From positions 193,656 to 257,655 of the forward strand of contig CAZAMC010000002.1 of assembly GCA_964486505.1 (NCBI GenBank): DNA of 64,000 bases, written 5' to 3'. Origin of the DNA: an uncultured Gammaproteobacteria bacterium. GTDB taxonomy: Bacteria; Patescibacteriota; Patescibacteriia; PEXW01. The notes under the pieces are model-generated. The model did no database searches and was not told where the DNA came from. It saw only the letters and a program-made list of their open reading frames with translations. A program made the position numbers and the translations under genes. Shown here piece after piece: positions 6,983 to 64,000 of the stretch (positions within the stretch are counted from its first letter, which is position 1; every line of letters begins with the position of its first letter).

Positions 6983-9340
6983 ATGCGCACTCGTACGCTG
7001 AACCTATCGTTTGCCACCGCCATTACTCTGGCGGCGTTTTTGTTTCTTCCGAACGTGTCGCATGCCGTGTATGGCAGCGTGAGCACCTTCTTGGGGAAAA
7101 TCTACGCGGGTGATAGTGGTACTCGCACCGAAGCGCTCCTGGATTTTCCCGAAGATGTAGAAGTGACCAGTGATGGAACGTTCTACATTGCCGACACCTA
7201 CAACAATGTGATTCGCAAAGTGTCGCCTGCCGGCACAGTCTCCACGTACGCTGGAACAGGTGAGTACGGGAATAAGGATGGCACCGCTACCACGGCAACT
7301 TTCGCCTTGCCGCGGGGCCTTGCATTTGATGGCAGCGGGAACTTATACGTTGCTGACTCGGCGAATAACCGAATTAGAAAAATTAGCCCAAGCGGTGCGG
7401 TGTCCACGTTGGTGCGCACCGGCCTCGCCAACCCCCAAGGCGTTGTCGTGAATGGTTCAACTCTCTACATTGCCGATACCGACGGCAATGCCATTCGGAA
7501 GGTTCCAACTGCGGGCGGCAAGCTGGTAACCGTCTCTACCCAAGTGAAGAAGCCGAAGAAGATTACGCTTACTGCGGCAGGGAACCTGTACGTCGCGGAT
7601 AGTGGCACCTACCGGGTGCTGGAGGTGAACGTCAATACGGGCGTGGCCTCTGTCATTGCCGGTTCGGGCTCGGCCGGTTACTGGGAGGGTGTGGGGAGTG
7701 AAGCGCTCTTCCGCAATGTGTACGGCGTTACACGGGATGGCGATACGCTGTACGTGTCGGATGGTGACGGGCTAACCGACTACGTGCGTGCTATCAACCT
7801 CGTTACCCACGAGACGCGACTGGTTGCCCAGGATTCTCGCATGCTCGAAGTGAACGTGCCGTGTGGCCTGCGCGTGTTCAATGGTCAGGTATACGTGGCG
7901 AATGCTGGAATCAGCACAATTCATCGGTTCAACCCGAGTAACGAACTGGATAAGGAGCAGTACATTGGCTCCACGCGGTTTGGGGACGTAAACGGCGTAG
8001 CGGCGAACGTCTTGCTCGGTCGGCCCTCGGCCATGGCGATAACCGCCGATGGCGCCACCATGTACACTATTGTGAATAACCACATCCGGCGTATTACGTT
8101 GGCCACGGGGGCAACGGAGACGATTATTGGTGACATCATTGATGGGTATGGTGAAGGTCCGGCCGACCAAGCATCACCGCGCGTGCGCTTCAGTTCGCCC
8201 GCGTCCCTGGTTTTGAGCCCCGATGGAACAGCGCTCTACGTGGCGGACCGGTGGAACAACCGCATTCGCAAAGTGGATCTTACGGTAACGCCGGTGGTCG
8301 CTTCGCTCATTTCAGGTTCGGGCATCACAAATGCAACCGGCGCCATGAACAACGGCTACCAGGAAGGGGCGCAGTGCGTCACCGAATCGTTGGCCCAGGC
8401 CGGGTGTGCGTACTTCCGGGGGCCGCAGGGGATTGCAGTTTCACCCGACGGCGCCACACTGTACGTGGCTGACTCAGGGAACAACCGCATCCGGAGCGTT
8501 CGCGTCAGTGATGGCGTTACCTCGCTTATCGCTGGCTCCTCCGCTGGCTTTGCCGACGGCACCGGGAGTGCAGCGAAGTTCCGAGCACCCTCTCGGCTCG
8601 CACTTTCGCTGGATGGCGCCACGTTGTACGTGGCTGACACGGGTAACCATCGCATTCGGGCAATCACCCTGGAAACGGGGAAGGTTGCAACCCTTGCGGG
8701 CAGCAAGCAAGGCCATGAAGAAGGCCAAGGCATTTTTGCGGCCTTGTCGCTCCCCGTGGGTCTGGCCATGGGGCCCGGCAATCAGCTGTACATTTCCAGT
8801 GTGGGTTCAAATCGGGTAACCGTGGTAAACACGAAGACGGGTTTGATGACGCTGGTATCGGGCTCGGCAGAGCGTGGGTACCGCAACGGCACGTGGTTGC
8901 AGGCCCGCTTCAATTCCTTGGCTAGCTTGGCGCTCACGCCCGATGGCACTGCGCTGTACGTGGCCGATAGTTGGAACGACATCATCCGGAAGGTGGACGT
9001 GGTGGGTGGGCCGAAGTTTAGCCAAGCCGCCCCTGTGTACAGCCGTTTCTTGGTGGCCAAGTTGAAGCAGGCCAAGACATCAACCCAGACAGCATACCTT
9101 GACATCTTCGGTAAAAATTTCCGCAATGGTGTGCAGGTACAAATTGGTTCGTACAAGCTCAAGACTTTCAAGAAGTCTGGGACCAACATCAACATGCTCA
9201 TCCCATGGGGGAAGATGAAGCCCGGTTACTACGACGTGAAGATTACGAACCGCGATACGCAGTTCACCATTAAGCGGGGGGCTTTTGCCATCACTGACAG
9301 TAAGGGGAATATTCCCAAGACGTACTACCGCATTCGATAA
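6983..9340 (+). CDS. secreted NHL-repeat protein with C-terminal Ig-like domain
   Basis: Signal peptide (MRTRTLNLSFATAITLAAFLFLPNVSHA). At least six NHL-type repeats (YVADSANNRIRKI, YIADTYNNVIRKV, YVADRWNNRIRKV, YVADSGNNRIRSV, YVADTGNHRIRAI, YVADSWNDIIRKV). ATG at 6983 is chosen over the upstream in-frame ORF start. Confidence 0.75.
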   Translation: MRTRTLNLSFATAITLAAFLFLPNVSHAVYGSVSTFLGKIYAGDSGTRTEALLDFPEDVEVTSDGTFYIADTYNNVIRKVSPAGTVSTYAGTGEYGNKDGTATTATFALPRGLAFDGSGNLYVADSANNRIRKISPSGAVSTLVRTGLANPQGVVVNGSTLYIADTDGNAIRKVPTAGGKLVTVSTQVKKPKKITLTAAGNLYVADSGTYRVLEVNVNTGVASVIAGSGSAGYWEGVGSEALFRNVYGVTRDGDTLYVSDGDGLTDYVRAINLVTHETRLVAQDSRMLEVNVPCGLRVFNGQVYVANAGISTIHRFNPSNELDKEQYIGSTRFGDVNGVAANVLLGRPSAMAITADGATMYTIVNNHIRRITLATGATETIIGDIIDGYGEGPADQASPRVRFSSPASLVLSPDGTALYVADRWNNRIRKVDLTVTPVVASLISGSGITNATGAMNNGYQEGAQCVTESLAQAGCAYFRGPQGIAVSPDGATLYVADSGNNRIRSVRVSDGVTSLIAGSSAGFADGTGSAAKFRAPSRLALSLDGATLYVADTGNHRIRAITLETGKVATLAGSKQGHEEGQGIFAALSLPVGLAMGPGNQLYISSVGSNRVTVVNTKTGLMTLVSGSAERGYRNGTWLQARFNSLASLALTPDGTALYVADSWNDIIRKVDVVGGPKFSQAAPVYSRFLVAKLKQAKTSTQTAYLDIFGKNFRNGVQVQIGSYKLKTFKKSGTNINMLIPWGKMKPGYYDVKITNRDTQFTIKRGAFAITDSKGNIPKTYYRIR

Positions 9341-9355
9341 CGATGCAACACAAAG

Positions 9356-9379
9356 GCCCCTCACTATAGAGGGGCTTTT
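9356..9379 (+). terminator. intrinsic terminator of the NHL-repeat gene
   Basis: GCCCCTC-ACTATA-GAGGGGC hairpin followed by TTTT, 16 nt after the stop. Confidence 0.55.
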
Positions 9380-9380
9380 G

Positions 9381-9401
9381 TGGCGGACCCGAAGGGAATC
9401 G
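9381..9401 (-). repeat. 21-nt direct copy of the 3' end of tRNA-Asp (with a degenerate T-arm remnant up to about 9450)
   Basis: tggcggacccgaagggaatcg at 9381-9401 is identical to 9491-9511. Adjacent sequence retains GGCCGATTCCCTTC in place of GGTTCGATTCCCTTC. Confidence 0.5.
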
Positions 9402-12811: not shown

Positions 12812-12837
12812 AAAAACCCGTCAGCGACGGGTTTTTG
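12812..12837. terminator. bidirectional intrinsic terminator (A5-CCCGTC-AGC-GACGGG-T5) between tmRNA 3' end and infC
   Basis: Perfect 6-bp GC-rich stem flanked by A-run and T-run. Confidence 0.55.
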
Positions 12838-12838
12838 G

Positions 12839-13241
12839 GTGGAGATGAGGGGTCTTGCACCCCTGTCTAGAATGCGGCAGGCCGGTGGTCTACAGGTGTA
12901 GGGCGTTCACGGGTGTTTCGATCTGGTCGCATGGAGCGCCCAAGCCCGACCAGGTCTAGTGGAAGTGAATTTCGGTTGCGCTGTTACCACCCCGACGCAG
13001 CCTACGCCTGGAATATAACACTCGCGATTCCCGCGCCAGGTCACGGGGCGAATGGGCTATCGGTTTTTAGGCGAGAGCCGGAGCAAAGCTGGGCATTGCG
13101 AACGCGTTAGCGAACGCAGTCTTCACTTTGCTGACAATGCTATTGGCAGTTGTCAATTTGTCCAGCAGTTTTACGCCGTGCTGAACGCGGGCGACCCGCA
13201 CACCAACCGTAATGCACTCTATCAACTTCTGGACATCCCCG
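12839..13241 (-). ncRNA. ssrA: tmRNA (SsrA), about 403 nt
   Basis: Directly downstream of smpB on the same strand. The 5' end GGGGATG pairs with the 3' CATCTCC including a G3:U70 wobble, the AlaRS identity element, followed by discriminator A and CC. A T-arm-like GGGG-TGCAAGA-CCCC precedes the acceptor. An internal tag reading frame ends ...GCT AAC GCG TTC GCA ATG CCC AGC TTT GCT CCG GCT CTC GCC TAA (ANAFAMPSFAPALA*) at 13068-13112. Confidence 0.7.
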
Positions 13242-17935: not shown

Positions 17936-18064
17936 GGTATTCTCCTTTTATTCACGTGCAATTTTCTGTCGGCACCTTAGCGCGCGGTAGGCGTTTGGTC
18001 AATTGCATGTCTTGCCAGCGAACGTCATTTATCGTACACTCACCCCCGCACAGTCATCTTGTCT

Positions 18065-21000
18065 ATGGCGAAGAAACCGCACACTGCGAAGGACGCAACC
18101 GCACCATCGAGCGAACGTCCAGCGACGCCCTTCCCCGCCCTCGAGGAAGCGGTTTTGCAATTGTGGAAAGACGAGAAGGTTTTTCAGAAATCATTACAGC
18201 AGACGAAAGCCGGTACACCATTCGTATTTTTCGAAGGGCCGCCCACGGCGAACGGGAAACCAGGCATCCACCACGTTCTGGCGCGCGCGTACAAAGACGT
18301 CATCGTGCGGTACAAGACGATGCAAGGCTACTTCGTGGAGCGAAAAGCCGGCTGGGACACGCACGGTCTGCCGGTGGAGCTGCAAGTAGAAAAGGCCTTG
18401 AAGATATCGGGGAAGCAGCAAATAGAGAATCTTGTCCCTGGTGATGTGCAGGCGAGCATTGAGAAATTCAATGCCGCGTGCAAGAAGAGCGTCATGGAGT
18501 ACCGGAAAGATTGGGAGCACCTTACCAGCCGAATTGGTTTTTGGCTGGACCTCAAGCATCCGTACATTACCTACGATCCCGAATACATCGAGAGCGTGTG
18601 GTGGGTTTTCCAGCAGGTGTGGGAGAAAGGTTTGGTGTACAAGGGGCACAAGGTGGTGCCCCACTGCCCACGCTGCGAGACCGCCCTCTCCTCGCACGAG
18701 GTGGCCCAAGGCTACAAGAACGTTACGGATACGTCGGTGTACGTTAAGTTCAAGGTAACGCAGAGCACTGTGCCAACGTTGCAGAATCTCTTAAGCAAAG
18801 GTGAAGAGGTCTTCGTGCTCTCGTGGACGACCACGCCGTGGACATTGCCGGGTAACGTGGCCTTAGCTATTGGCAAAGACATGGCGTATCAATTGGTGAA
18901 GCATGACGGTGCGTACCTCATCCTGGCGAAAGAACGTATGGCGGTTCTGGGTGATGATGCAAAAGTTCTGGAAGATCTTACAGGTGAGCAGCTCATTGGC
19001 ACAGCCTACGAGCCGCTGTTCCCCGGCGCGGTGAAGAAGGGGAACTCTCCCACAGCCTGGACAGTCCTGCCTGCCGATTTCGTGACCACAACGGATGGTA
19101 CGGGGGTGGTGCACACGGCCGTGATGTACGGTGAAGATGACTACAAGCTTGGCGAAGAAGCAGGGTTGCCGAAAGTGCACACTGTGGATCCGACCGGGAA
19201 GTTTTTGCCAAGCGTCGCCAAGTGGGCGGGGAAGTTCGTGAAAGACCCGGGCGTGGAAACGGACATTATCACCGATCTCAAGGAACGGGGGTTGCTGCAC
19301 AAGGTGGAGCAGTTTGCGCACGATTACCCCTTCTGCTGGCGTTGCAGCACCCCTTTGCTCTACTACGCCAAAGATAGCTGGTTCATCCGGATGTCGGACG
19401 TGCGATCGAAGCTCATTGAGAACAACCGAACTATCAACTGGGTGCCCGCGTACCTAAAGGAAGGGCGTTTTGGGGAGTGGCTGAAAGACGTCAAAGATTG
19501 GGCCATCTCCCGGGAGCGCTACTGGGGCACGCCCTTGCCCATCTGGGAATGTGCGCAGTGCAAAGCGCAGAAGGTGGTGGGAAGTTTTGCAGATTTGCAG
19601 CTGCCAGAAAAGCAGGTAGACGTTCTCATGCTGCGTCATGGTTTCTCGAAAAAGAACAAACCCTCGATTATCCAGGGCAATGTTGAAGAGAGCCACCTGC
19701 ACGGCCTGACGCCCGAAGGAGCAGCGCAGGTGAAGAAGACTGCGCAGAAGCTAAAAGGGAAAATTGACGTTATTGTTGCCTCTGATTTTGAACGGACACG
19801 GGAGACCGCGCAGATCGTTAGTGACGTCACGGGTGCGCCAGTCACGTACGACCCAGACTTGCGAGAAATTCAAACGCCCGACTGGGAAGGACAGCTCGTG
19901 GTGGAGGTTCGTAAAAGCCTGCCCGATCCTTTACCCATGAGCCACCACCTTGGTGGGGGCGAGAACTACTATCAGGTTCGTGAGCGGATGCAGCGAGCTG
20001 TGCAACAGGCAATCCGCACGCACGCAGGAAAACGCGTGCTGATTGTCTCGCACGGTGACCCGCTGTGGATTTTGAAGTGGTCGTACTCGAACGTGCCGGA
20101 AAGCCAGTACCCCGAAACACCGTACCCGAAGAAGGGCGAGGCAGAGCATTTACGGGTGCCGTTGCAATTCGATCCGCACCGGCCGTTCATCGACGACGTC
20201 ACGTTGACGTGCGAGAAGTGTGACGGCACTATGCACCGCGTACCCGAGGTGCTGGATGTGTGGTTTGATTCTGGGGCCATGCCGTTTGCCCAGTGGCACT
20301 ACCCGTTTGCGGAGAAAGCCCGGGTAGACGAGGGTACGAATTTTCCGGCGGACTATATTTCCGAAGCAATCGATCAAACCCGCGGGTGGTTCTACACGCT
20401 CCTCGCCATCTCTACCTTGCTCGGCAAAGGGGCACCGTATAAGAACGTCATTTCCCTTGGCCACATCCTGGATGCCAAGGGCCAGAAGATGAGCAAGTCC
20501 AAGGGCAATGTGGTGGTGCCCGCTGACGTCATAAACCGCTACGGTGCCGATGCGCTGCGCCTGCACCTCTTCACCATGAGCCAGGCCGGCGACCCGAAGA
20601 ACTTCGACGTGCAGGGTGTGGACGACGTGGTGAAGAAGACGCTGCTCATTTACTGGAACATCGTAACGTTCTATCAAACCCACGCGGGCGAGCACGTGCA
20701 TGTTGTTCCAGAGAAACCTAGCCACATCATGGACCAGTGGATACTGGCCCGGTTGAGTCAGGTGACCGGTGTGGTAACGGCGAAACTGGATGGATACGAC
20801 CCGACTACGGCAGCGCGCACCTTGCAAGAATTCATCACCGATCTTTCTACCTGGTACGTCCGCCGGAGCCGAGACCGCATGCGGCACGGTAAGCACACCT
20901 CAACCGAAGCAGCCGCTGTGCTCCGGCACGTCATCCGCACCACGGCCGGGCTCCTGGCCCCATTTGCCCCATTCGTCAGCGAACACGTGCACCAGCAACT

Positions 21001-21589
21001 CCGGCACATCGATGAACCCGTGAGCATTCACCTCATGCCCTGGCCAACTGCCGTCGCTGCCGATACCGCGGTCCTGGACGATATGCAGCGGGTACGAGAT
21101 GCAGTAGAACTCGGCCATGCAATTCGGAAGGAACAGAATCTCAAAGTTCGCCAGCCGCTTGCGAGCGTATTCGTTAACCATGAGCTCCAGCCCGACCTCC
21201 AGCAGGTGCTGCGGGAAGAGCTGAACGTAGAGGCGTGCACTGTAGACAAAGCTATGCCCCCCGGGTGGGTAGGCAAGGCCAAAGGCGCGCTCATGGTGGC
21301 GCTCAATACCACCATTGATGAAGATCTTCGTCATAAAGGTTTGGTCCGGGAGCTGGCCCGTCACGTGAACGACTTGCGGAAGGCAGCGGGGCTCACGGTA
21401 AAAGACGTGGTCGACGTGGAATGGATGACCGACGACCCAACGTTGCAGCATGCGTTTACCGAGCACGCCGCTGAGTTGCGCGAATTCACGAAAGCCCGGA
21501 GCATAAAGGCCAGCAGCGTGCTGCAGGTGACCCACAAGAAGGAGCTCATCATCGGCGATGCTCGGGTAACCATTGGCATTACCGCATGA
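18065..21589 (+). CDS. ileS: isoleucine--tRNA ligase carrying an embedded histidine-phosphatase (SixA/PGAM-like) domain
   Basis: HIGH-region PPTANGKPGIHH, KMSKSKGN, the WAISRERYWGTPLP and DVWFDSG motifs, and a long C-terminal anticodon-binding region. About 160 aa between the CxxC...CxxC zinc knuckle halves read LRHGFS...HGLTPEGAAQ...ASDFERTRETAQ...VLIVSHGDPLWIL. Confidence 0.85.
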   Translation: MAKKPHTAKDATAPSSERPATPFPALEEAVLQLWKDEKVFQKSLQQTKAGTPFVFFEGPPTANGKPGIHHVLARAYKDVIVRYKTMQGYFVERKAGWDTHGLPVELQVEKALKISGKQQIENLVPGDVQASIEKFNAACKKSVMEYRKDWEHLTSRIGFWLDLKHPYITYDPEYIESVWWVFQQVWEKGLVYKGHKVVPHCPRCETALSSHEVAQGYKNVTDTSVYVKFKVTQSTVPTLQNLLSKGEEVFVLSWTTTPWTLPGNVALAIGKDMAYQLVKHDGAYLILAKERMAVLGDDAKVLEDLTGEQLIGTAYEPLFPGAVKKGNSPTAWTVLPADFVTTTDGTGVVHTAVMYGEDDYKLGEEAGLPKVHTVDPTGKFLPSVAKWAGKFVKDPGVETDIITDLKERGLLHKVEQFAHDYPFCWRCSTPLLYYAKDSWFIRMSDVRSKLIENNRTINWVPAYLKEGRFGEWLKDVKDWAISRERYWGTPLPIWECAQCKAQKVVGSFADLQLPEKQVDVLMLRHGFSKKNKPSIIQGNVEESHLHGLTPEGAAQVKKTAQKLKGKIDVIVASDFERTRETAQIVSDVTGAPVTYDPDLREIQTPDWEGQLVVEVRKSLPDPLPMSHHLGGGENYYQVRERMQRAVQQAIRTHAGKRVLIVSHGDPLWILKWSYSNVPESQYPETPYPKKGEAEHLRVPLQFDPHRPFIDDVTLTCEKCDGTMHRVPEVLDVWFDSGAMPFAQWHYPFAEKARVDEGTNFPADYISEAIDQTRGWFYTLLAISTLLGKGAPYKNVISLGHILDAKGQKMSKSKGNVVVPADVINRYGADALRLHLFTMSQAGDPKNFDVQGVDDVVKKTLLIYWNIVTFYQTHAGEHVHVVPEKPSHIMDQWILARLSQVTGVVTAKLDGYDPTTAARTLQEFITDLSTWYVRRSRDRMRHGKHTSTEAAAVLRHVIRTTAGLLAPFAPFVSEHVHQQLRHIDEPVSIHLMPWPTAVAADTAVLDDMQRVRDAVELGHAIRKEQNLKVRQPLASVFVNHELQPDLQQVLREELNVEACTVDKAMPPGWVGKAKGALMVALNTTIDEDLRHKGLVRELARHVNDLRKAAGLTVKDVVDVEWMTDDPTLQHAFTEHAAELREFTKARSIKASSVLQVTHKKELIIGDARVTIGITA

Positions 21590-28943: not shown

Positions 28944-29047
28944 CGTCCCACGCCAGCGGAAGAAGAGAAATTTTTACCGAGTACGGTTTTTTTGAGGGAA
29001 ACAAATTCGGTGAAGAGCAGTATTGGAACCGCTGGCCCAAAAATACT

Positions 29048-29125
29048 GCGGCTGTAGCTCAGGGGTAGAGCCTGGGGGATTCTCCATAGCCCTCACTGTC
29101 GGTGGTTCAATTCCATCCAGCCGCA
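29048..29125 (+). tRNA. tRNA-like gene with atypical anticodon arm (identity uncertain; possibly pseudo-tRNA)
   Basis: Normal acceptor stem (GCGGCTG/CAGCCGC), D-arm (GCTC-AGGGGTA-GAGC) and T-arm (GGTGG-TTCAATT-CCATC) with discriminator A. The segment between them is 6 nt longer than canonical. The best fold is an 8-bp anticodon stem with one mismatch and loop TCTCCAT, read as UCC/Gly but with C33. Confidence 0.5.
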
Positions 29126-29135
29126 AAAAATACAC

Positions 29136-57523: not shown

Positions 57524-57543
57524 CTGGTGGTTCATTCGTAAAA

Positions 57544-57578
57544 GGCTTGGACGAATTCGTTCAAGCCTTTTACTTTTT
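57544..57578 (+). terminator. intrinsic terminator after speH
   Basis: Long imperfect palindrome GGCTTGGACGAATTCGTTCAAGCC followed by TTTTACTTTTT. Confidence 0.5.
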
Positions 57579-57660
57579 CCAACCCCGCCCCTCTGTTTAC
57601 CCATTTTTTCCCGAGCGATATACTAGTACGTATTCTAGTTAGTTCAATAATACCAAGTGT

Positions 57661-58721: not shown

Positions 58722-59462
58722 GTGAAAGTTGCAGTCATTAGCGATATCCACGGGAACCTCACAGCGTTGCAAGCCGTGCTGAACGATCAGCGCGTTCTTG
58801 GCGTTGATGAGGTGTACTGCTTAGGCGATATCGTTGGCTACGGACCGCGCCCACGAGAGTGCCTCGGGATAGTCCAGGCATGTGCGAAAGGTATTGTTCG
58901 CGGCAACCATGAAGAAGCCACAGCTGACATTGAAACGTGGCAATCGGAGTTGAATGACTACGCTGTTGCTGGCATTCGCTACTCCGCGCAGCAATTGCGT
59001 CCGCAAGATTCTGTGTACGTGAAAGCATTACCGGAGACGCTGGTTCTCCCGGCGCTGGGCATCGCCTGCGCGCACGGGGCGTTCGTGCCGCCGTACCTAT
59101 GGCGGTACACGGAAACCGAAGAAGATGTGAAGGCGCAGTTTGCCCATCTCCCAGCACGCATCGGGTGCATCGGGCACACGCACATTCCATTCGTCTTCGG
59201 GAGCACAGCCGGTTTGTTCGAGACATTGCCAGACGCGCTACCGCTCGGAGAAGGCCAGCAGTTCCTCATTAACGTTGGGAGCGTTGGCCAACCGCGTGAT
59301 GGCGACTGCCGTGCGAGCTACGGCGTTTTCACCTTCAGCGATGGGAATGCGCCGACGTTCGATTTACGGCGGGTGTTCTACGACATCGCGCAGGTAGCAG
59401 CCGATATTCGGCAAGCCGGATTACCAACATTCCTTGCAGAACGATTGTTCCAAGGGCAGTGA
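58722..59462 (+). CDS. metallophosphoesterase (calcineurin-like)
   Basis: VISDIHGN, GDIVGYG, GNHE, GHTH motifs. GTG start with a GGAGG RBS. Confidence 0.7.
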   Translation: MKVAVISDIHGNLTALQAVLNDQRVLGVDEVYCLGDIVGYGPRPRECLGIVQACAKGIVRGNHEEATADIETWQSELNDYAVAGIRYSAQQLRPQDSVYVKALPETLVLPALGIACAHGAFVPPYLWRYTETEEDVKAQFAHLPARIGCIGHTHIPFVFGSTAGLFETLPDALPLGEGQQFLINVGSVGQPRDGDCRASYGVFTFSDGNAPTFDLRRVFYDIAQVAADIRQAGLPTFLAERLFQGQ

Positions 59463-59471
59463 GGAGTACAC

Positions 59472-60260
59472 ATGCGTATTGGAAATTACGAAATACTCAA
59501 GCAGATTGGCGAGGGTGGCTTTGCGCGAACGTACGTAGCGCGCCACGTCGTCCTCGGCGAGCTTGCGTGTCTGAAGCAGAACCTCGATATTAGTCGGGAA
59601 GACGAGGCGTTGCTGCTCAAAGAGGCAAAGCTCCTCTGGCACATCCACCACTACTCCCTCCCCACGCTTCGGGATTTCCTGAAGTGCAAGGACGGGAGCT
59701 ACGTGCTGGTCATGACCTTCATCGAGGGGAAAGACTTGTTCAAGGTAGTAGCGGAAGACTTCCCGCGTGGTTTGGATCCCGAGCACGTGTGCTGGATCAT
59801 GCAGCGTTTGCTGAACGCCCTGCACTACCTGCACTTCCACGGCGTCATCCACGGCGACGTGAAGCCGCAGAACATTATGATTCGGCCCGACGAGCACAAC
59901 GCTGTGCTCGTGGACTACGGTTTGGCCACGCTCAAGCCCAAACACCGGACGCACACCGAAGGGTATACCCCGGCGTTCGCTGCGCCCGAGCAGCTGGAGG
60001 GCCAGCCGCCGATTCCCGAGACGGACTTGTACTGCCTGGGGGAATCCATGATCTACGCGCTCGGCGGGAATCCCGCAGCAGTGACGTACCCTAAGCACGT
60101 TCCACGGCAACTCCAGACCTTCATCAACCGATTGGTTGTCCGCGATCCGCTAAAACGGCCGCGGAGTGCGGAGGCACTCGTCATGCAGCTCTCCGACTTG
60201 CGGCAAGAGATTTTCGGCCGCCGGCGGAGTGAGAAGACACTTGAACTTGCAATGAAGTAA
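59472..60260 (+). CDS. Hanks-type Ser/Thr protein kinase
   Basis: Gly-rich loop IGEGGFARTY, the catalytic loop HGDVKPQNIM, DYGLA and APE motifs. Confidence 0.75.
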   Translation: MRIGNYEILKQIGEGGFARTYVARHVVLGELACLKQNLDISREDEALLLKEAKLLWHIHHYSLPTLRDFLKCKDGSYVLVMTFIEGKDLFKVVAEDFPRGLDPEHVCWIMQRLLNALHYLHFHGVIHGDVKPQNIMIRPDEHNAVLVDYGLATLKPKHRTHTEGYTPAFAAPEQLEGQPPIPETDLYCLGESMIYALGGNPAAVTYPKHVPRQLQTFINRLVVRDPLKRPRSAEALVMQLSDLRQEIFGRRRSEKTLELAMK

Positions 60261-60293
60261 ACACCCACACCACAAGTATAGGAGGTAAGTACT

Positions 60294-61277
60294 ATGTATG
60301 GTTGGTCATCTGACGATGGCCGTGCCTCAACTGGCATGGACAGCGACCGTGGCTACGATTACGGCTCTGCTCGTAAAGCGTACGCAGACGACGCTGCAAG
60401 CCCATCCGCTCGGCGCTCTGCTTCGGCTCGCGCCAAGTCGTACAAATCGCGCATCGGCCGTACCGAAGCGCCGGTCGGCAAGGATATTCAGACGGACAGC
60501 ACTCACCCTATCGTGGTGTGCACAGACGTCACCGGCTCGATGCGGGAAACCCCGGGCATCATGTTCGAGAAGCTCCCGCTCCTCGGCAAGGAAGTGGAAC
60601 GCTACGCGCCGGCGTACGCCACGAGCTTCGTCGCGTTCGGCGACGTCGACGACAGCTACCCGCTCCAAGTGCGTGACTTCGCCTCTGGCGAAGCGCTGGA
60701 CGAGCACATCGCCGCGCTTTACCCCGAAGGTCAGGGTGGCGACGATCCCGAAGACCCCGAGCTGGTAGCCTACTACCTGCTCAACCACTGCAAGATGCCG
60801 AACGCAGTGAAGCCGGTCTGCTTCTTCATCACGGACGCCACTTGCCACAGGCAGGTGCAGCCGGAAGACGTGAAGAATTTCACGGGCGATACGGTGCAAT
60901 CCGCGCTCGATTCGGCCTCGCTCTTCAAGCAGCTGGCGAAGAAGTTCTCGGTGTACGTCATTCTCCGGAACTACTCGCCCGGCAGCTCCACGGTAGAATT
61001 CTGGAGCGACATGGTTGGCGCGCAGCGCGTGAAGCCCCTCGAAGAACCGCGCGACATCGTCGAGTTGCTCATCGGCCTCTACGCCGCGGAGCTGGGCGAG
61101 CTGAAGGACTTCGAACTTCGCTCGTCACGACGTCACAGCGACAAGCCGGACCGGGTGAGTCGCGTCATCAAGTCTGTCCATTCCGGTGGCCTCGCCACGG
61201 GTGCATCCGGCAGCAAAGCGAAGCCCGCCGGAACCAAGCGGAGCACTTCGATTCGCAGTAAGAAGCTCACCGACTGA
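60294..61277 (+). CDS. vWA-domain protein
   Basis: MIDAS-like IVVCTDVTGSM after a disordered basic N-terminus. Basic C-terminal tail. Confidence 0.55.
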   Translation: MYGWSSDDGRASTGMDSDRGYDYGSARKAYADDAASPSARRSASARAKSYKSRIGRTEAPVGKDIQTDSTHPIVVCTDVTGSMRETPGIMFEKLPLLGKEVERYAPAYATSFVAFGDVDDSYPLQVRDFASGEALDEHIAALYPEGQGGDDPEDPELVAYYLLNHCKMPNAVKPVCFFITDATCHRQVQPEDVKNFTGDTVQSALDSASLFKQLAKKFSVYVILRNYSPGSSTVEFWSDMVGAQRVKPLEEPRDIVELLIGLYAAELGELKDFELRSSRRHSDKPDRVSRVIKSVHSGGLATGASGSKAKPAGTKRSTSIRSKKLTD

Positions 61278-61291
61278 GCGAAGGAGCAGCA

Positions 61292-62308
61292 ATGAAAGTC
61301 ATAACCACGATTCCGCCCTACGCGCCGTTCCTACCGGCAATCGCGAAGGTGCCCATCGTGTCTGGGTTCCGCCTGAACACGGTGATGCCCGTGAGCGGTT
61401 CGCTCAGCGATATGCTCAAACGGTTGAAGAGCATCGTCGGCCGGAAGCAGCTCTGGATAGACCTGAAGTGTCGCCAGATCCGCATTAGCCGCGGTGACTA
61501 CTTCAAGGCGCCCACTGAGCCGCGCACCTACACCATCGGCGGGACGACCTACGTCCTCGACCCCTCGCAACCGCGGGCCTTTGGCCACATTGTGAGCCCG
61601 CCGTGGGCGACCATCAAGATTGATCGGAAGATCAAGCTCGATGTGTCTCGTGGGCCAGTGAAGTGCTGGTTCCAGGATGGCAAGGAGTCTGCCAGCATCG
61701 TGGAGGTCATCAACGGTGATGAGCTCATCATGCTGGATGGCCCGCAGCGTATTGTCGGTGGTGGTGAGTCTATCAACATCACCGATCCCAGCTTGGAGGT
61801 AGAAGGGTACCTAACCGACCTGGACGTGCAGTACGTCGAGGCCGCGAGAGCGCTCGGCATCCACACCTACATGCTGTCCTACGTCGAGCAGGATAGTGAC
61901 ATCACCGACCTGCTCGCGCTGGATCCCGACGCGCACATCCTGGCGAAGATCGAGTCGCGGAAGGGCTTGCAGTGGGTGCAGGATTCGTACTCGAAGCACA
62001 AGTCTGCCAAGGTGCGGCTCATGGCTGCCCGCGGCGACTTGTTCGTTGAGGTGGGTCGTCCAGACCGTATCCTCAACCCGCTGAAGGATGTGGTGGCCGC
62101 CGATGCAGGTGCTGTGCTCGCGTCGAGGATTTTCAACTCCCTCGTCAGCAGCCCGCACCCGTCGTGTGCAGACGTTACGGACATCGCCTGCATGCTGGAG
62201 ATGGGGTACCGCCACTTCATGATCGGCGACGACATTTGCTTCCACGAGGAGTCTCTGCTGCTTGCCCTGGACATCCTCCAGGCAATTGACCGGGACTACC
62301 GACGGTAG
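61292..62308 (+). CDS. pyruvate-kinase-like/HpcH-type TIM-barrel protein
   Basis: ILAKIESRKGL ... LMAARGDLFVEVG resembles the PK/HpcH (PEP/pyruvate-binding) barrel motifs KIEN...G and MVARGDLG. No PK C-terminal domain. Confidence 0.4.
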   Translation: MKVITTIPPYAPFLPAIAKVPIVSGFRLNTVMPVSGSLSDMLKRLKSIVGRKQLWIDLKCRQIRISRGDYFKAPTEPRTYTIGGTTYVLDPSQPRAFGHIVSPPWATIKIDRKIKLDVSRGPVKCWFQDGKESASIVEVINGDELIMLDGPQRIVGGGESINITDPSLEVEGYLTDLDVQYVEAARALGIHTYMLSYVEQDSDITDLLALDPDAHILAKIESRKGLQWVQDSYSKHKSAKVRLMAARGDLFVEVGRPDRILNPLKDVVAADAGAVLASRIFNSLVSSPHPSCADVTDIACMLEMGYRHFMIGDDICFHEESLLLALDILQAIDRDYRR

Positions 62309-62333
62309 CACACGTTCGCATGCACTTTTTTAA

Positions 62334-62361
62334 GGCGACTCTCAACAGAGAGTCGCCTTTT
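62334..62361 (+). terminator. intrinsic terminator
   Basis: GGCGACTCTC-AACA-GAGAGTCGCC followed by TTTTCTTTT. Confidence 0.6.
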
Positions 62362-62520
62362 CTTTTCCCCCAATCCCAACCCCGCCCCCGGGGGCTTGCC
62401 TCGACTCGCCGAGGGCGTCCCGAGGCGAGGCGGGCAGAGGGGTGGAGCAGAATACATTAGACCTTTCTTTACAATCCCTCGGAAGAGTGGGATGTTTGGG
62501 TTAGCCTAATCAGTAGTCCT

Positions 62521-63733
62521 TATGTTACAAGACAATATATACGGTCGGTGCGCTCGTACTGTGAACGCAAATGGCCAGAACATCTATGTTGATCTGGACT
62601 TATTTTTTGTCCGTCTTTTACTTTTTGAAAAGTACACACTTGAATCTTTAAGACTAAAAGAACTTCCATTTTTGGCCAGTACCATTTCGATTGATGGCCT
62701 CTTGGAGCTTCTAGAATCTGGTTCATTAAAATTTCACTGGGAACCAATAAGTGTCGCCGATATTGCCCAGTTGAAGTCCGCAAATAGAATAGCTATCCAT
62801 GACGGACTACCAAGTTATACTTATTCTATTAGTGCGGTAGAACTAGTTGACTTAGAGCACGCTGTAGATAAGTGTCTGAAAGTATTAAAGACAATTCCAA
62901 ACATTACTCACCGGCAATTAAAACGTCTAAAACGAGCAGTAAGTAATAACATTGTTTACCACCGTCCTGATGCGATGAAAGGCATACTTGAATCTTTTTG
63001 GGTAGACTTAAAAAATGAAGACTTCGTAAAATCATCTATAATAAATGAGGCTGGAAAAGCACAACCGTCGGACAATTTTTTTATTAATATTGAAAAGGTA
63101 AATAACAATGACATCATTGTTAGGACAAATATTTGCTCATGGCTGGGGATCGACATCAATGCAGGGTTTAAAGTTGTCCAAAGCGCGATACTGCGAATCG
63201 GTGGGTTGAATGAGCGTCTTTCACAAATGAAAGATTTTGATTCAGTTATTGGATTTCATTCAGAAAAAGACTTTGAATTATACGATCGTAAATTTCATCC
63301 AATAAGTCGAGAGATTTCAGAACAAAAAGCAGTTAAAGAACTTGGGAGGTTGATAAATTTGAAAGAATTGCCCGACGTTAATAGTTTATTTCAAAGAGGG
63401 TCATTAGATATAAAAAAATTACTAAAAGTAAGAGAAAGCCATGAATGTCGTGATTTCCGGCGATGGCTTTGGGCACAGGCAAATTTATCCGATGAAGAAA
63501 TTTTAGAACGATTTTCAGGTATAAAGGGAAAACTAGGTAATAAACTTACATCCCTTCCTAGCAGGGTCATCCGCTTCGTTGTCGGTGGTGCAGTAGGTAT
63601 GTTTGGTTTAGCTCCCGGTGCAGCAGTAACAGCTGTAGATCAGTTTGTTCTAGATCAGGTTTTTAAAAAGGATGGCGTACGTGCCTTTGTTGATAACCTT
63701 TATCCTTCATTATGGAGGACTGATGGAAGTTAA
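62521..63733 (+). CDS. hypothetical protein encoded in AT-rich island
   Basis: 403-aa ORF in sequence far more AT-rich than the rest of the window. No motif assigned. Confidence 0.5.
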
Positions 63734-63740
63734 GTGTTTA

Positions 63741-63768
63741 TTGACAAAAAAGTATAAAATGCTAGCAT
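63741..63768 (+). promoter_or_regulatory. candidate promoter TTGACA-16-TAGCAT
   Basis: Consensus -35 with a plausible -10 placing the transcription start near 63775. Confidence 0.3.
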
Positions 63769-63774
63769 AAAAAT

Positions 63775-63861
63775 GTGTCTGTGAGGGACATCCCGTAACC
63801 GGCTAAGATATCCTACGCTGGAAAAGCAGACACAGAAAAAAGCCCCTAACCGGGCTTTTTT
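63775..63861 (+). ncRNA. candidate small RNA (about 87 nt) with own promoter and intrinsic terminator
   Basis: An 8-bp closing helix (UGUGUCUG...CAGACACA) encloses about 45 nt with an internal GGGA-CA-UCCC hairpin. It is followed by an AGCCC-CUAACC-GGGCU-U6 terminator. No ORF of meaningful length. Confidence 0.25.
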
Positions 63862-64000
63862 GCGTACTTTTTCTTTTGTTCAGCGCTGCGTCTTTCTCTA
63901 ATGCTATAGAAATGCGGCGAGCTTAAGGGAAATTGACGAATTATAACAATGATATGTCTTTTCATGCCATCGACAATGCCGTGTAATTCAGTGAAAGTAA

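Follow-up and report, generated by a model that had tools for sequence, protein, structure and literature searches.

The window, a 64,000-nucleotide stretch of contig CAZAMC010000002.1, ends in a block of AT-rich DNA whose main gene encodes a 403-residue (403-aa) protein. An original prediction, made from the letters of the window, had described this end as an abrupt AT-rich island with foreign, defence or addiction cargo, carrying a protein without recognisable motifs and a compact small-RNA gene, and cut off by the window end. The segment forms an islet that contains two convergent protein genes, one intrinsic terminator common to both of them and, in the interval between the genes, a promoter-like site followed by a structured element. 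The features of the locus are listed below in window coordinates, with the strand given as + or -.

62455..64000, continuing about 350 bp past the window, no strand: AT-rich islet, 38% GC, defined by composition profiles and by two Logan contigs (L001 and L002)

62522..63733, +: gene of the 403-aa protein, an open reading frame (ORF) whose product matches a large uncharacterised family over its full length; the family has one architecture

63572..63640, +: glycine-zipper segment of the same gene (codons 351-373), from column statistics over 60 family members and a modelled helical hairpin

63846..64000, -: 3' third of a 140-aa ORF, supported by gene call and ORF; the full frame occupies 63846-64268 in window-equivalent positions (1952-2374 of L002)

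63741..63768, +: sigma-70-type promoter-like site, TTGACA-16-TAGCAT with a TG extension, 10/12 matches

63774..63835, +: 62-nt structured element, a three-way junction with a 9-bp closing helix and two small hairpins; folding free energy (dG) -22.4 kcal/mol, z -3.24

63836..63861, no strand: terminator-like hairpin between an A-run and a T-run, common to both convergent genes; dG -12.5, z -3.2

62387..62450, no strand: GC-rich spacer flanking the junction from the host side; fold z -1.2, 26/200 shuffles as good

62332..62359, +: intrinsic terminator of the upstream PK-barrel-like gene (61292-62308), formed by a stem of 12 bp and a T-run behind it, z about -7 to -10

The composition of the window changes sharply at the left border of the islet. 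The GC content in 1-kb bins lies between 0.52 and 0.63 over positions 1-62,000, drops to 0.49 at 62,001-63,000 and reaches 0.38 at 63,001-64,000. A 100-nt profile places the switch, from about 57% to 38%, at about 62,455. The GC content at third codon positions (GC3) shows the same break, being 0.29 in the gene of the 403-aa protein and 0.48-0.82 in the 61 other non-overlapping ORFs of the window. Both measures agree with the abrupt change described in the original prediction. The terminator of the PK-barrel-like gene, which is among the strongest structures in the window, is the last clearly host-type feature before the islet. It is followed by the GC-rich spacer, which had been taken for a palindrome. 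The region 62380-62455 is indeed GC-rich and folds no better than its shuffles, so the palindrome is not retained; the spacer has no further copy elsewhere in the window.

The right border lies outside the window, and the element is truncated as had been noticed, with only about 350 bp missing. The Logan contigs L001 and L002, which derive from different runs, both carry the gene of the 403-aa protein and match the window at every base over 2.1 and 2.6 kb, reproducing both junctions. The three assemblies (the window and the two Logan contigs) agree base for base across these junctions. L002 reaches 656 bp past the window end, and in this contig the AT-rich DNA stops at about window-equivalent position 64,354, which gives the islet a total length of about 1.9 kb. 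The right flank is a UvrD/PcrA-type helicase gene of 62-66% GC, the first 61 residues of which correspond to the N-terminus of UvrD/REP helicases (Pfam E 2.7e-21). Within these limits, the gene content of the islet consists of the 403-aa ORF on the plus strand and the 140-aa ORF on the minus strand, which converge on one intrinsic terminator. Horizontal acquisition of the islet is well supported, and as an islet the feature is an ordinary product of horizontal transfer. In addition, a Shine-Dalgarno-like motif is absent 5' of both islet genes (62500-62521 of the window and 2375-2400 of L002), and AAGGAG-type motifs precede many host genes; the missing motifs are a further, weak sign of foreign origin.

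The 403-aa protein has no match in Pfam, PHROG or NCBIfam, and no housekeeping family was found for it, in line with the earlier description of a protein without recognisable motifs. A word-index protein search returns only four distant relatives, and an exhaustive profile search recovers 1,466 representatives at E<=1e-3, including 530 at E<=1e-30. The representatives are clusters at 50% identity, and the family thus comprises at least 1,466 clusters. Nearly all members are 390-430 aa long and align with the 403-aa protein from end to end. These end-to-end matches of about uniform length therefore define a large unnamed family with a single architecture. Domain fusions were considered for the longer members, and their apparent N- or C-terminal extensions look like miscalled starts or frameshifts. 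The members are annotated as "hypothetical protein" in their sources. Moreover, 60 family members give no meaningful match in Pfam, the family profile matches no sequence in the PDB, and a scan of GTDB genomes found no relatives of the 403-aa protein.

The residues that are nearly invariant in the family are all kept in the window copy, namely D24, S42, E47, P97, M236, G244, R276, R304 and E308, together with F312, W315, D373, F375, G385, F389, Y394 and P395. Because all of them are retained, the window copy is probably functional, as judged from its sequence. The family has no invariant His, Cys or Lys, so that nothing appears to point to a classical nuclease or to a metal site. The AlphaFold (AF2) model of the 403-aa protein, calculated from a 60-sequence alignment, is confident, with a predicted local distance difference test (pLDDT) score of 88.7 and a predicted template modelling (pTM) score of 0.86. 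A Foldseek search with this model yields best E values of 0.79 in the PDB and 0.2 in BFVD, neither of which constitutes a match. The family occurs across very different genomes and is without a name, a Pfam model or a structural relative.

The C-terminal region of the protein contains a conserved glycine zipper. Across the 60 family members, an uncharged stretch of 21 residues is bounded by R351 and D373, with no charged residue at positions 352-372. Glycines are conserved at positions 357, 359, 362, 366 and 370 (55-85% per column), and G362, G366 and G370 form a GxxxGxxxG motif. The median of the maximum 19-residue Kyte-Doolittle score of the segment is 1.6. In the model, the helices 345-360 and 366-380 form a hairpin with pLDDT 66-75, which is less confident than the model overall, and the zipper is followed by a conserved tail of 30 residues.

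The genomic surroundings of the family were analysed in nine distinct loci (among L003-L025). The neighbours of the family gene differ in every one of these contexts, and the gene stands alone. Its GC content is above that of the flanks in none of the nine and at least 5 points under a flank in seven, by up to 22 points. Examples are 0.29 vs 0.44 in a Sulfuricurvum metagenome-assembled genome (MAG), 0.29 vs 0.51, 0.28 vs 0.42, and 0.65 vs 0.70 in a genome of 70% GC. The family gene seems foreign to its host in most places of its occurrence. Known defence genes lie within about 4 kb of a family member in three of the nine contexts (L013, L004 and L024), a sample too small for a defence score. 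Particularly, in a contig of 70% GC (L013, 6916-17224), the family member P0160 has a phage-type integrase directly on one side and, on the other, a Pycsar system (PycC, E 6e-72, and PycTM). Beyond the Pycsar system follow a type I restriction-modification system and an OLD/AAA_15-TOPRIM (OLD-like) protein, and the genes together form a compact defence island. L004 has a type II restriction enzyme (E 6e-76) and a methyltransferase about 3 kb from the family member, and in L024 a GajA/OLD-like ATPase is found at a distance of about 2 kb. One more context (L014) contains a weak defence match. Single genes that are usually AT-shifted and sometimes stand beside Pycsar, restriction-modification or OLD genes are a signature typical of cargo under conflict-driven turnover.

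The explanation that we favour, with a probability of roughly 0.5 for the whole, is that of a horizontally acquired islet with a stand-alone accessory protein. The islet of about 1.9 kb would have entered the gap between the PK-barrel-like gene and the UvrD/PcrA-type helicase gene, bringing as cargo two convergent protein genes with a single bidirectional terminator. The main cargo would be the 403-aa protein, composed of a soluble alpha/beta-plus-helical body, the zipper hairpin and the 30-residue tail. The soluble body may sense or bind a trigger and in this way gate the membrane insertion or the oligomerisation of the C-terminal zipper, and the protein would thereby serve as a single-protein effector of the stress or abortive-infection (Abi) type. 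Such gating is proposed because of the conserved motif, the accessory behaviour of the family and the few neighbourhoods in defence islands. The unit of promoter, junction and terminator is most likely a short transcript or a 3'-end structure that would have come with the donor DNA, with no demonstrated tie to the protein.

Two kinds of known systems come closest to the locus and its protein. The locus resembles genomic islets and the cargo of defence islands in its sharp drop of GC and GC3, its position in an intergenic gap between host genes, its cargo without a housekeeping role and the scattering of its relatives over unrelated genomes, with Pycsar, restriction-modification or OLD-type defence genes next to them or nearby in three loci. 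It differs from them in lacking an integrase, a tRNA target, direct repeats and a transposase, and in consisting of two genes only, neither of which is in PADLOC. The protein itself resembles single-protein Abi or membrane effectors (2TM/PycTM-type, SLATT-type and glycine-zipper toxins) in its conserved, uncharged Gly-x3-Gly-x3-Gly helical hairpin at the C-terminus, behind a larger soluble domain. A soluble domain joined to a C-terminal hairpin is a layout typical of effectors that are kept inactive until triggered. The 403-aa protein differs from these effectors in that no similarity to them was found at the level of sequence or hidden Markov model (HMM), in its borderline hydrophobicity, in the 30-residue tail that follows the zipper, and in having no cyclase or other signal-generating partner. 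A literature search on glycine zippers in anti-phage systems found nothing relevant.

Several results weigh against the favoured explanation. With regard to the acquisition, the islet borders carry no direct, inverted or terminal repeats, and the islet, whose only two ORFs are both of unknown family, contains neither an integrase nor a transposase gene. A tRNA is found no nearer than 33 kb, and the transfer-messenger RNA (tmRNA) lies 49 kb away. An empty site was not recovered in relatives. Nine genomes carry the four-gene cassette that stands upstream of the islet and lack both islet genes; the UvrD neighbour is absent there too, so the site is not comparable. With regard to the function, the zipper is of only borderline hydrophobicity for a segment that spans the membrane, and AlphaFold packs it as part of the protein. 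PADLOC-DB v2 yields nothing for the 403-aa protein at E<=0.1 and PADLOC nothing for the 140-aa protein at E<=10. Six of the nine contexts have no recognised defence gene nearby. Within their limited sensitivity, tblastn with two family members finds no match in PLSDB plasmids or INPHARED phages, and peptide patterns of the family find none in IMG/VR.

A defence or abortive-infection role of the 403-aa family is thus plausible and unproven, and the family is a candidate for a new single-gene conflict system without a known fold. The part of the original prediction that concerned foreign origin is well supported. The defence part is plausible at most: the 403-aa protein has no PADLOC match, and its family behaves like accessory cargo. 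For the addiction part there is no evidence of a toxin-antitoxin (TA) arrangement. A bolder version, which we consider rather improbable, would make the family a widespread and unrecognised single-gene anti-phage or Abi system with a fold absent from the PDB and BFVD, killing or arresting the cell via the C-terminal zipper hairpin and accompanied here by its own structured RNA of about 90 nt as a modulator. If the family does act as a defence or membrane effector, it would represent both a new single-gene system and a new fold. Even if it does not, it provides a well-defined target for family curation.

The interval between the two stop codons contains the features behind the predicted small-RNA (sRNA) gene. 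The promoter-like site begins 8 nt past the stop codon of the 403-aa gene, and 5 nt separate the end of its -10 hexamer from the closing helix of the 62-nt element; the helix itself abuts the terminator. On the plus strand, none of 200 shuffles folds as well as the element; the minus strand reaches z -2.46, and the element together with the terminator reaches z -5.0. However, 2.3% of all 62-nt windows in the 64 kb attain z < -3.2 (25 shuffles per window), and the structure alone is therefore unremarkable. The generic features of a bacterial sRNA gene, namely its own promoter, a stable structure and an intrinsic terminator, are present at the level of motifs, including the three-way junction with its 9-bp helix. 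A gene is not established by them, given the ordinary z-score and the lack of a homologue or Rfam match.

Two readings of these features have to be weighed. The first, to which we give a little less than an even chance, regards the element as mere 3'-end architecture of convergent genes. Its hairpins would stabilise the 3' untranslated region of the 403-aa mRNA, and a second stem on the minus strand, with AUUUUUAU after it, would back up the termination of the 140-aa gene. The match to a promoter would then be a coincidence of AT-rich DNA. The position of the element wholly between two convergent stop codons argues for this reading, as do the U-rich run after the closing helix on the minus strand, the ordinary structure score and the expectation of about 0.77 promoter-like sites with at least 10/12 matches per shuffled islet. 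The islet contains one such site, and its TG extension in exact register is improbable by chance (0.05 per islet). Moreover, the minus strand folds more weakly and into a less clear-cut structure, which also speaks against the 3'-end reading.

The second reading, which is possible and on balance unlikely, holds the element to be an independent sRNA gene of about 90 nt, with transcription initiated at TTGACA-16-TAGCAT and halted by the common terminator, and with a role as regulator or antitoxin for one of the two islet proteins. It draws on the close fit of its parts, with the -10 hexamer 5 nt from a closing helix that ends where the terminator starts, on a chance of about 0.002 for a site of at least 10/12 matches in register just 5' of the structure, and on the better fold of the plus strand (z -3.24 vs -2.46), improved further by the terminator. 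Against it stand the frequency of equal z-scores among 62-nt windows and the fact that convergent genes require a terminator anyway. In addition, duplex prediction between the RNA and both neighbouring mRNAs, covering their 5' regions and bodies, gives nothing better than shuffles, and the islet has no tandem RNA repeats of the type III TA (ToxIN-like) kind; the RNA lies 3' of the protein gene. Rfam has no match to the RNA at gathering thresholds, and nothing at E<=1 is found on L002. Homologues of the RNA were found neither by exact 32-mer search in JGI metagenomes nor by 21-mer search in IMG/VR, and blastn and nhmmer searches against all fetched family loci do not link the element to other family members. 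The three assemblies are identical in the element and offer no variation for an analysis of covariation.

The best Rfam alignment is to Atu_C8 (RF02502), which shares with the RNA a stem-loop followed by an intrinsic terminator. The RNA scores 19.7 bits (E 0.85) where the gathering threshold is 50, the terminator carries the match, and the RNA is not a member of this family. A resemblance to the fluoride riboswitch, noticed by eye, was dropped since no crcB match appears in Rfam even at E<=10.

Type I TA loci offer another comparison. txpA/RatA and bsrG/SR4 of Bacillus subtilis are convergently transcribed sRNA/mRNA pairs of such loci, and here too a candidate structured RNA, short and preceded by a promoter of its own, runs towards a protein gene and overlaps the 3' end of that gene. 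The overlap differs in consisting only of the common terminator (about 20 nt) without extended complementarity, and the facing ORF encodes a basic protein of 140 aa where a small membrane peptide would be expected. The islet has neither an ORF for a small hydrophobic toxin nor an extended antisense overlap. The RNA is of interest only if its expression is shown. The second promoter of the original prediction, a TTGACG site pointing out of the window, does not hold up: no -10 hexamer is found at a spacing of 16-18 nt from the TTGACG at 63933-63938, which is not called by the scan and is located inside the 140-aa ORF of the minus strand.

The 140-aa protein is basic and non-hydrophobic, and the stop codon of its ORF lies inside the terminator hairpin of both islet genes. 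The ORF is probably a real gene, because 140 open codons are unlikely by chance at 38% GC by our own estimate. In a word-index search of 5.8 billion proteins, its sole match is itself, and no match is found in Pfam, PHROG, NCBIfam, PDB sequences or by tblastn against phages and plasmids. The two islet genes could make up a module of two components, such as a toxin and its immunity protein or regulator, and the 403-aa protein would then have the basic protein as its partner. The genes are adjacent, have the same composition, use a common terminator and were evidently acquired together, all of which would suit such a module. We nevertheless give it a slim chance, as the 140-aa protein is without a homologue and its gene has no copy beside other family members in the fetched loci, the family otherwise stands alone with varying neighbours, and convergent orientation is atypical of co-regulated pairs.

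It is very improbable that the AT-rich segment is an assembly chimera or that it belongs to the ordinary low-GC core of the organism's genome: the borders without a mobility gene or repeat and the unrecovered empty site would fit it, and it is opposed by a GC3 far outside the range of the 61 other ORFs, by the lack of a housekeeping match for either islet protein, by the absence of both genes from nine other genomes with relatives of the upstream cassette, and by the agreement of the three assemblies over both junctions.

The DNA around the islet is a cellular chromosome of about 57% GC and not a phage, because the window encodes arginyl- and isoleucyl-tRNA synthetases (ArgRS and IleRS), a class II aminoacyl-tRNA synthetase, a ClpB-like ATPase, the tmRNA, three tRNAs and large NHL, DUF11 and beta-helix surface proteins. 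The four genes before the islet (58722-62308) encode a metallophosphoesterase, a Ser/Thr kinase, a vWA-like protein with a DVTGSM motif and the PK-barrel-like protein. The closest syntenic relatives of this cassette are found in MAGs of Patescibacteria (Candidate Phyla Radiation, CPR), a hint, short of proof, that the chromosome probably comes from a Patescibacteria-like organism. The cassette is syntenic in nine MAG contigs at 42-69% identity, which are binned as Saccharibacteria, other CPR groups, Methanosarcinales, Woesearchaeota and Thermoanaerobaculia, a spread that suggests cross-domain transfer or mis-binning. Its occurrence in oddly binned MAGs had raised the possibility of a huge-phage origin, which was rejected because of the synthetases, the ClpB-like protein, the tmRNA and the surface proteins and because the cassette is not in IMG/VR. 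The kinase of the cassette matches the PADLOC mad6 and PD-T4-6 kinase models.

Further observations concern the rest of the window. The IleRS-like ORF at 18059-21589 (1176 aa) contains a His_Phos_1 domain at residues 523-688 (E 1.9e-34) within the class I synthetase region, an unusual insertion. The tmRNA at 12837-13240 (-) scores 81 bits in Rfam and is not reported by ARAGORN. The tRNA-Gly(UCC) call at 29047-29126 (+) spans 80 nt, more than a standard tRNA-Gly, and has its anticodon at position 37; it adjoins a tRNA-Met, and a crude ORF call from 29102 overlaps both. The strongest local RNA structures of the window, at 57529-57590 (+) and 9325-9386 (+), reach z of about -10 in the 62-nt scan and are probably intergenic intrinsic terminators.

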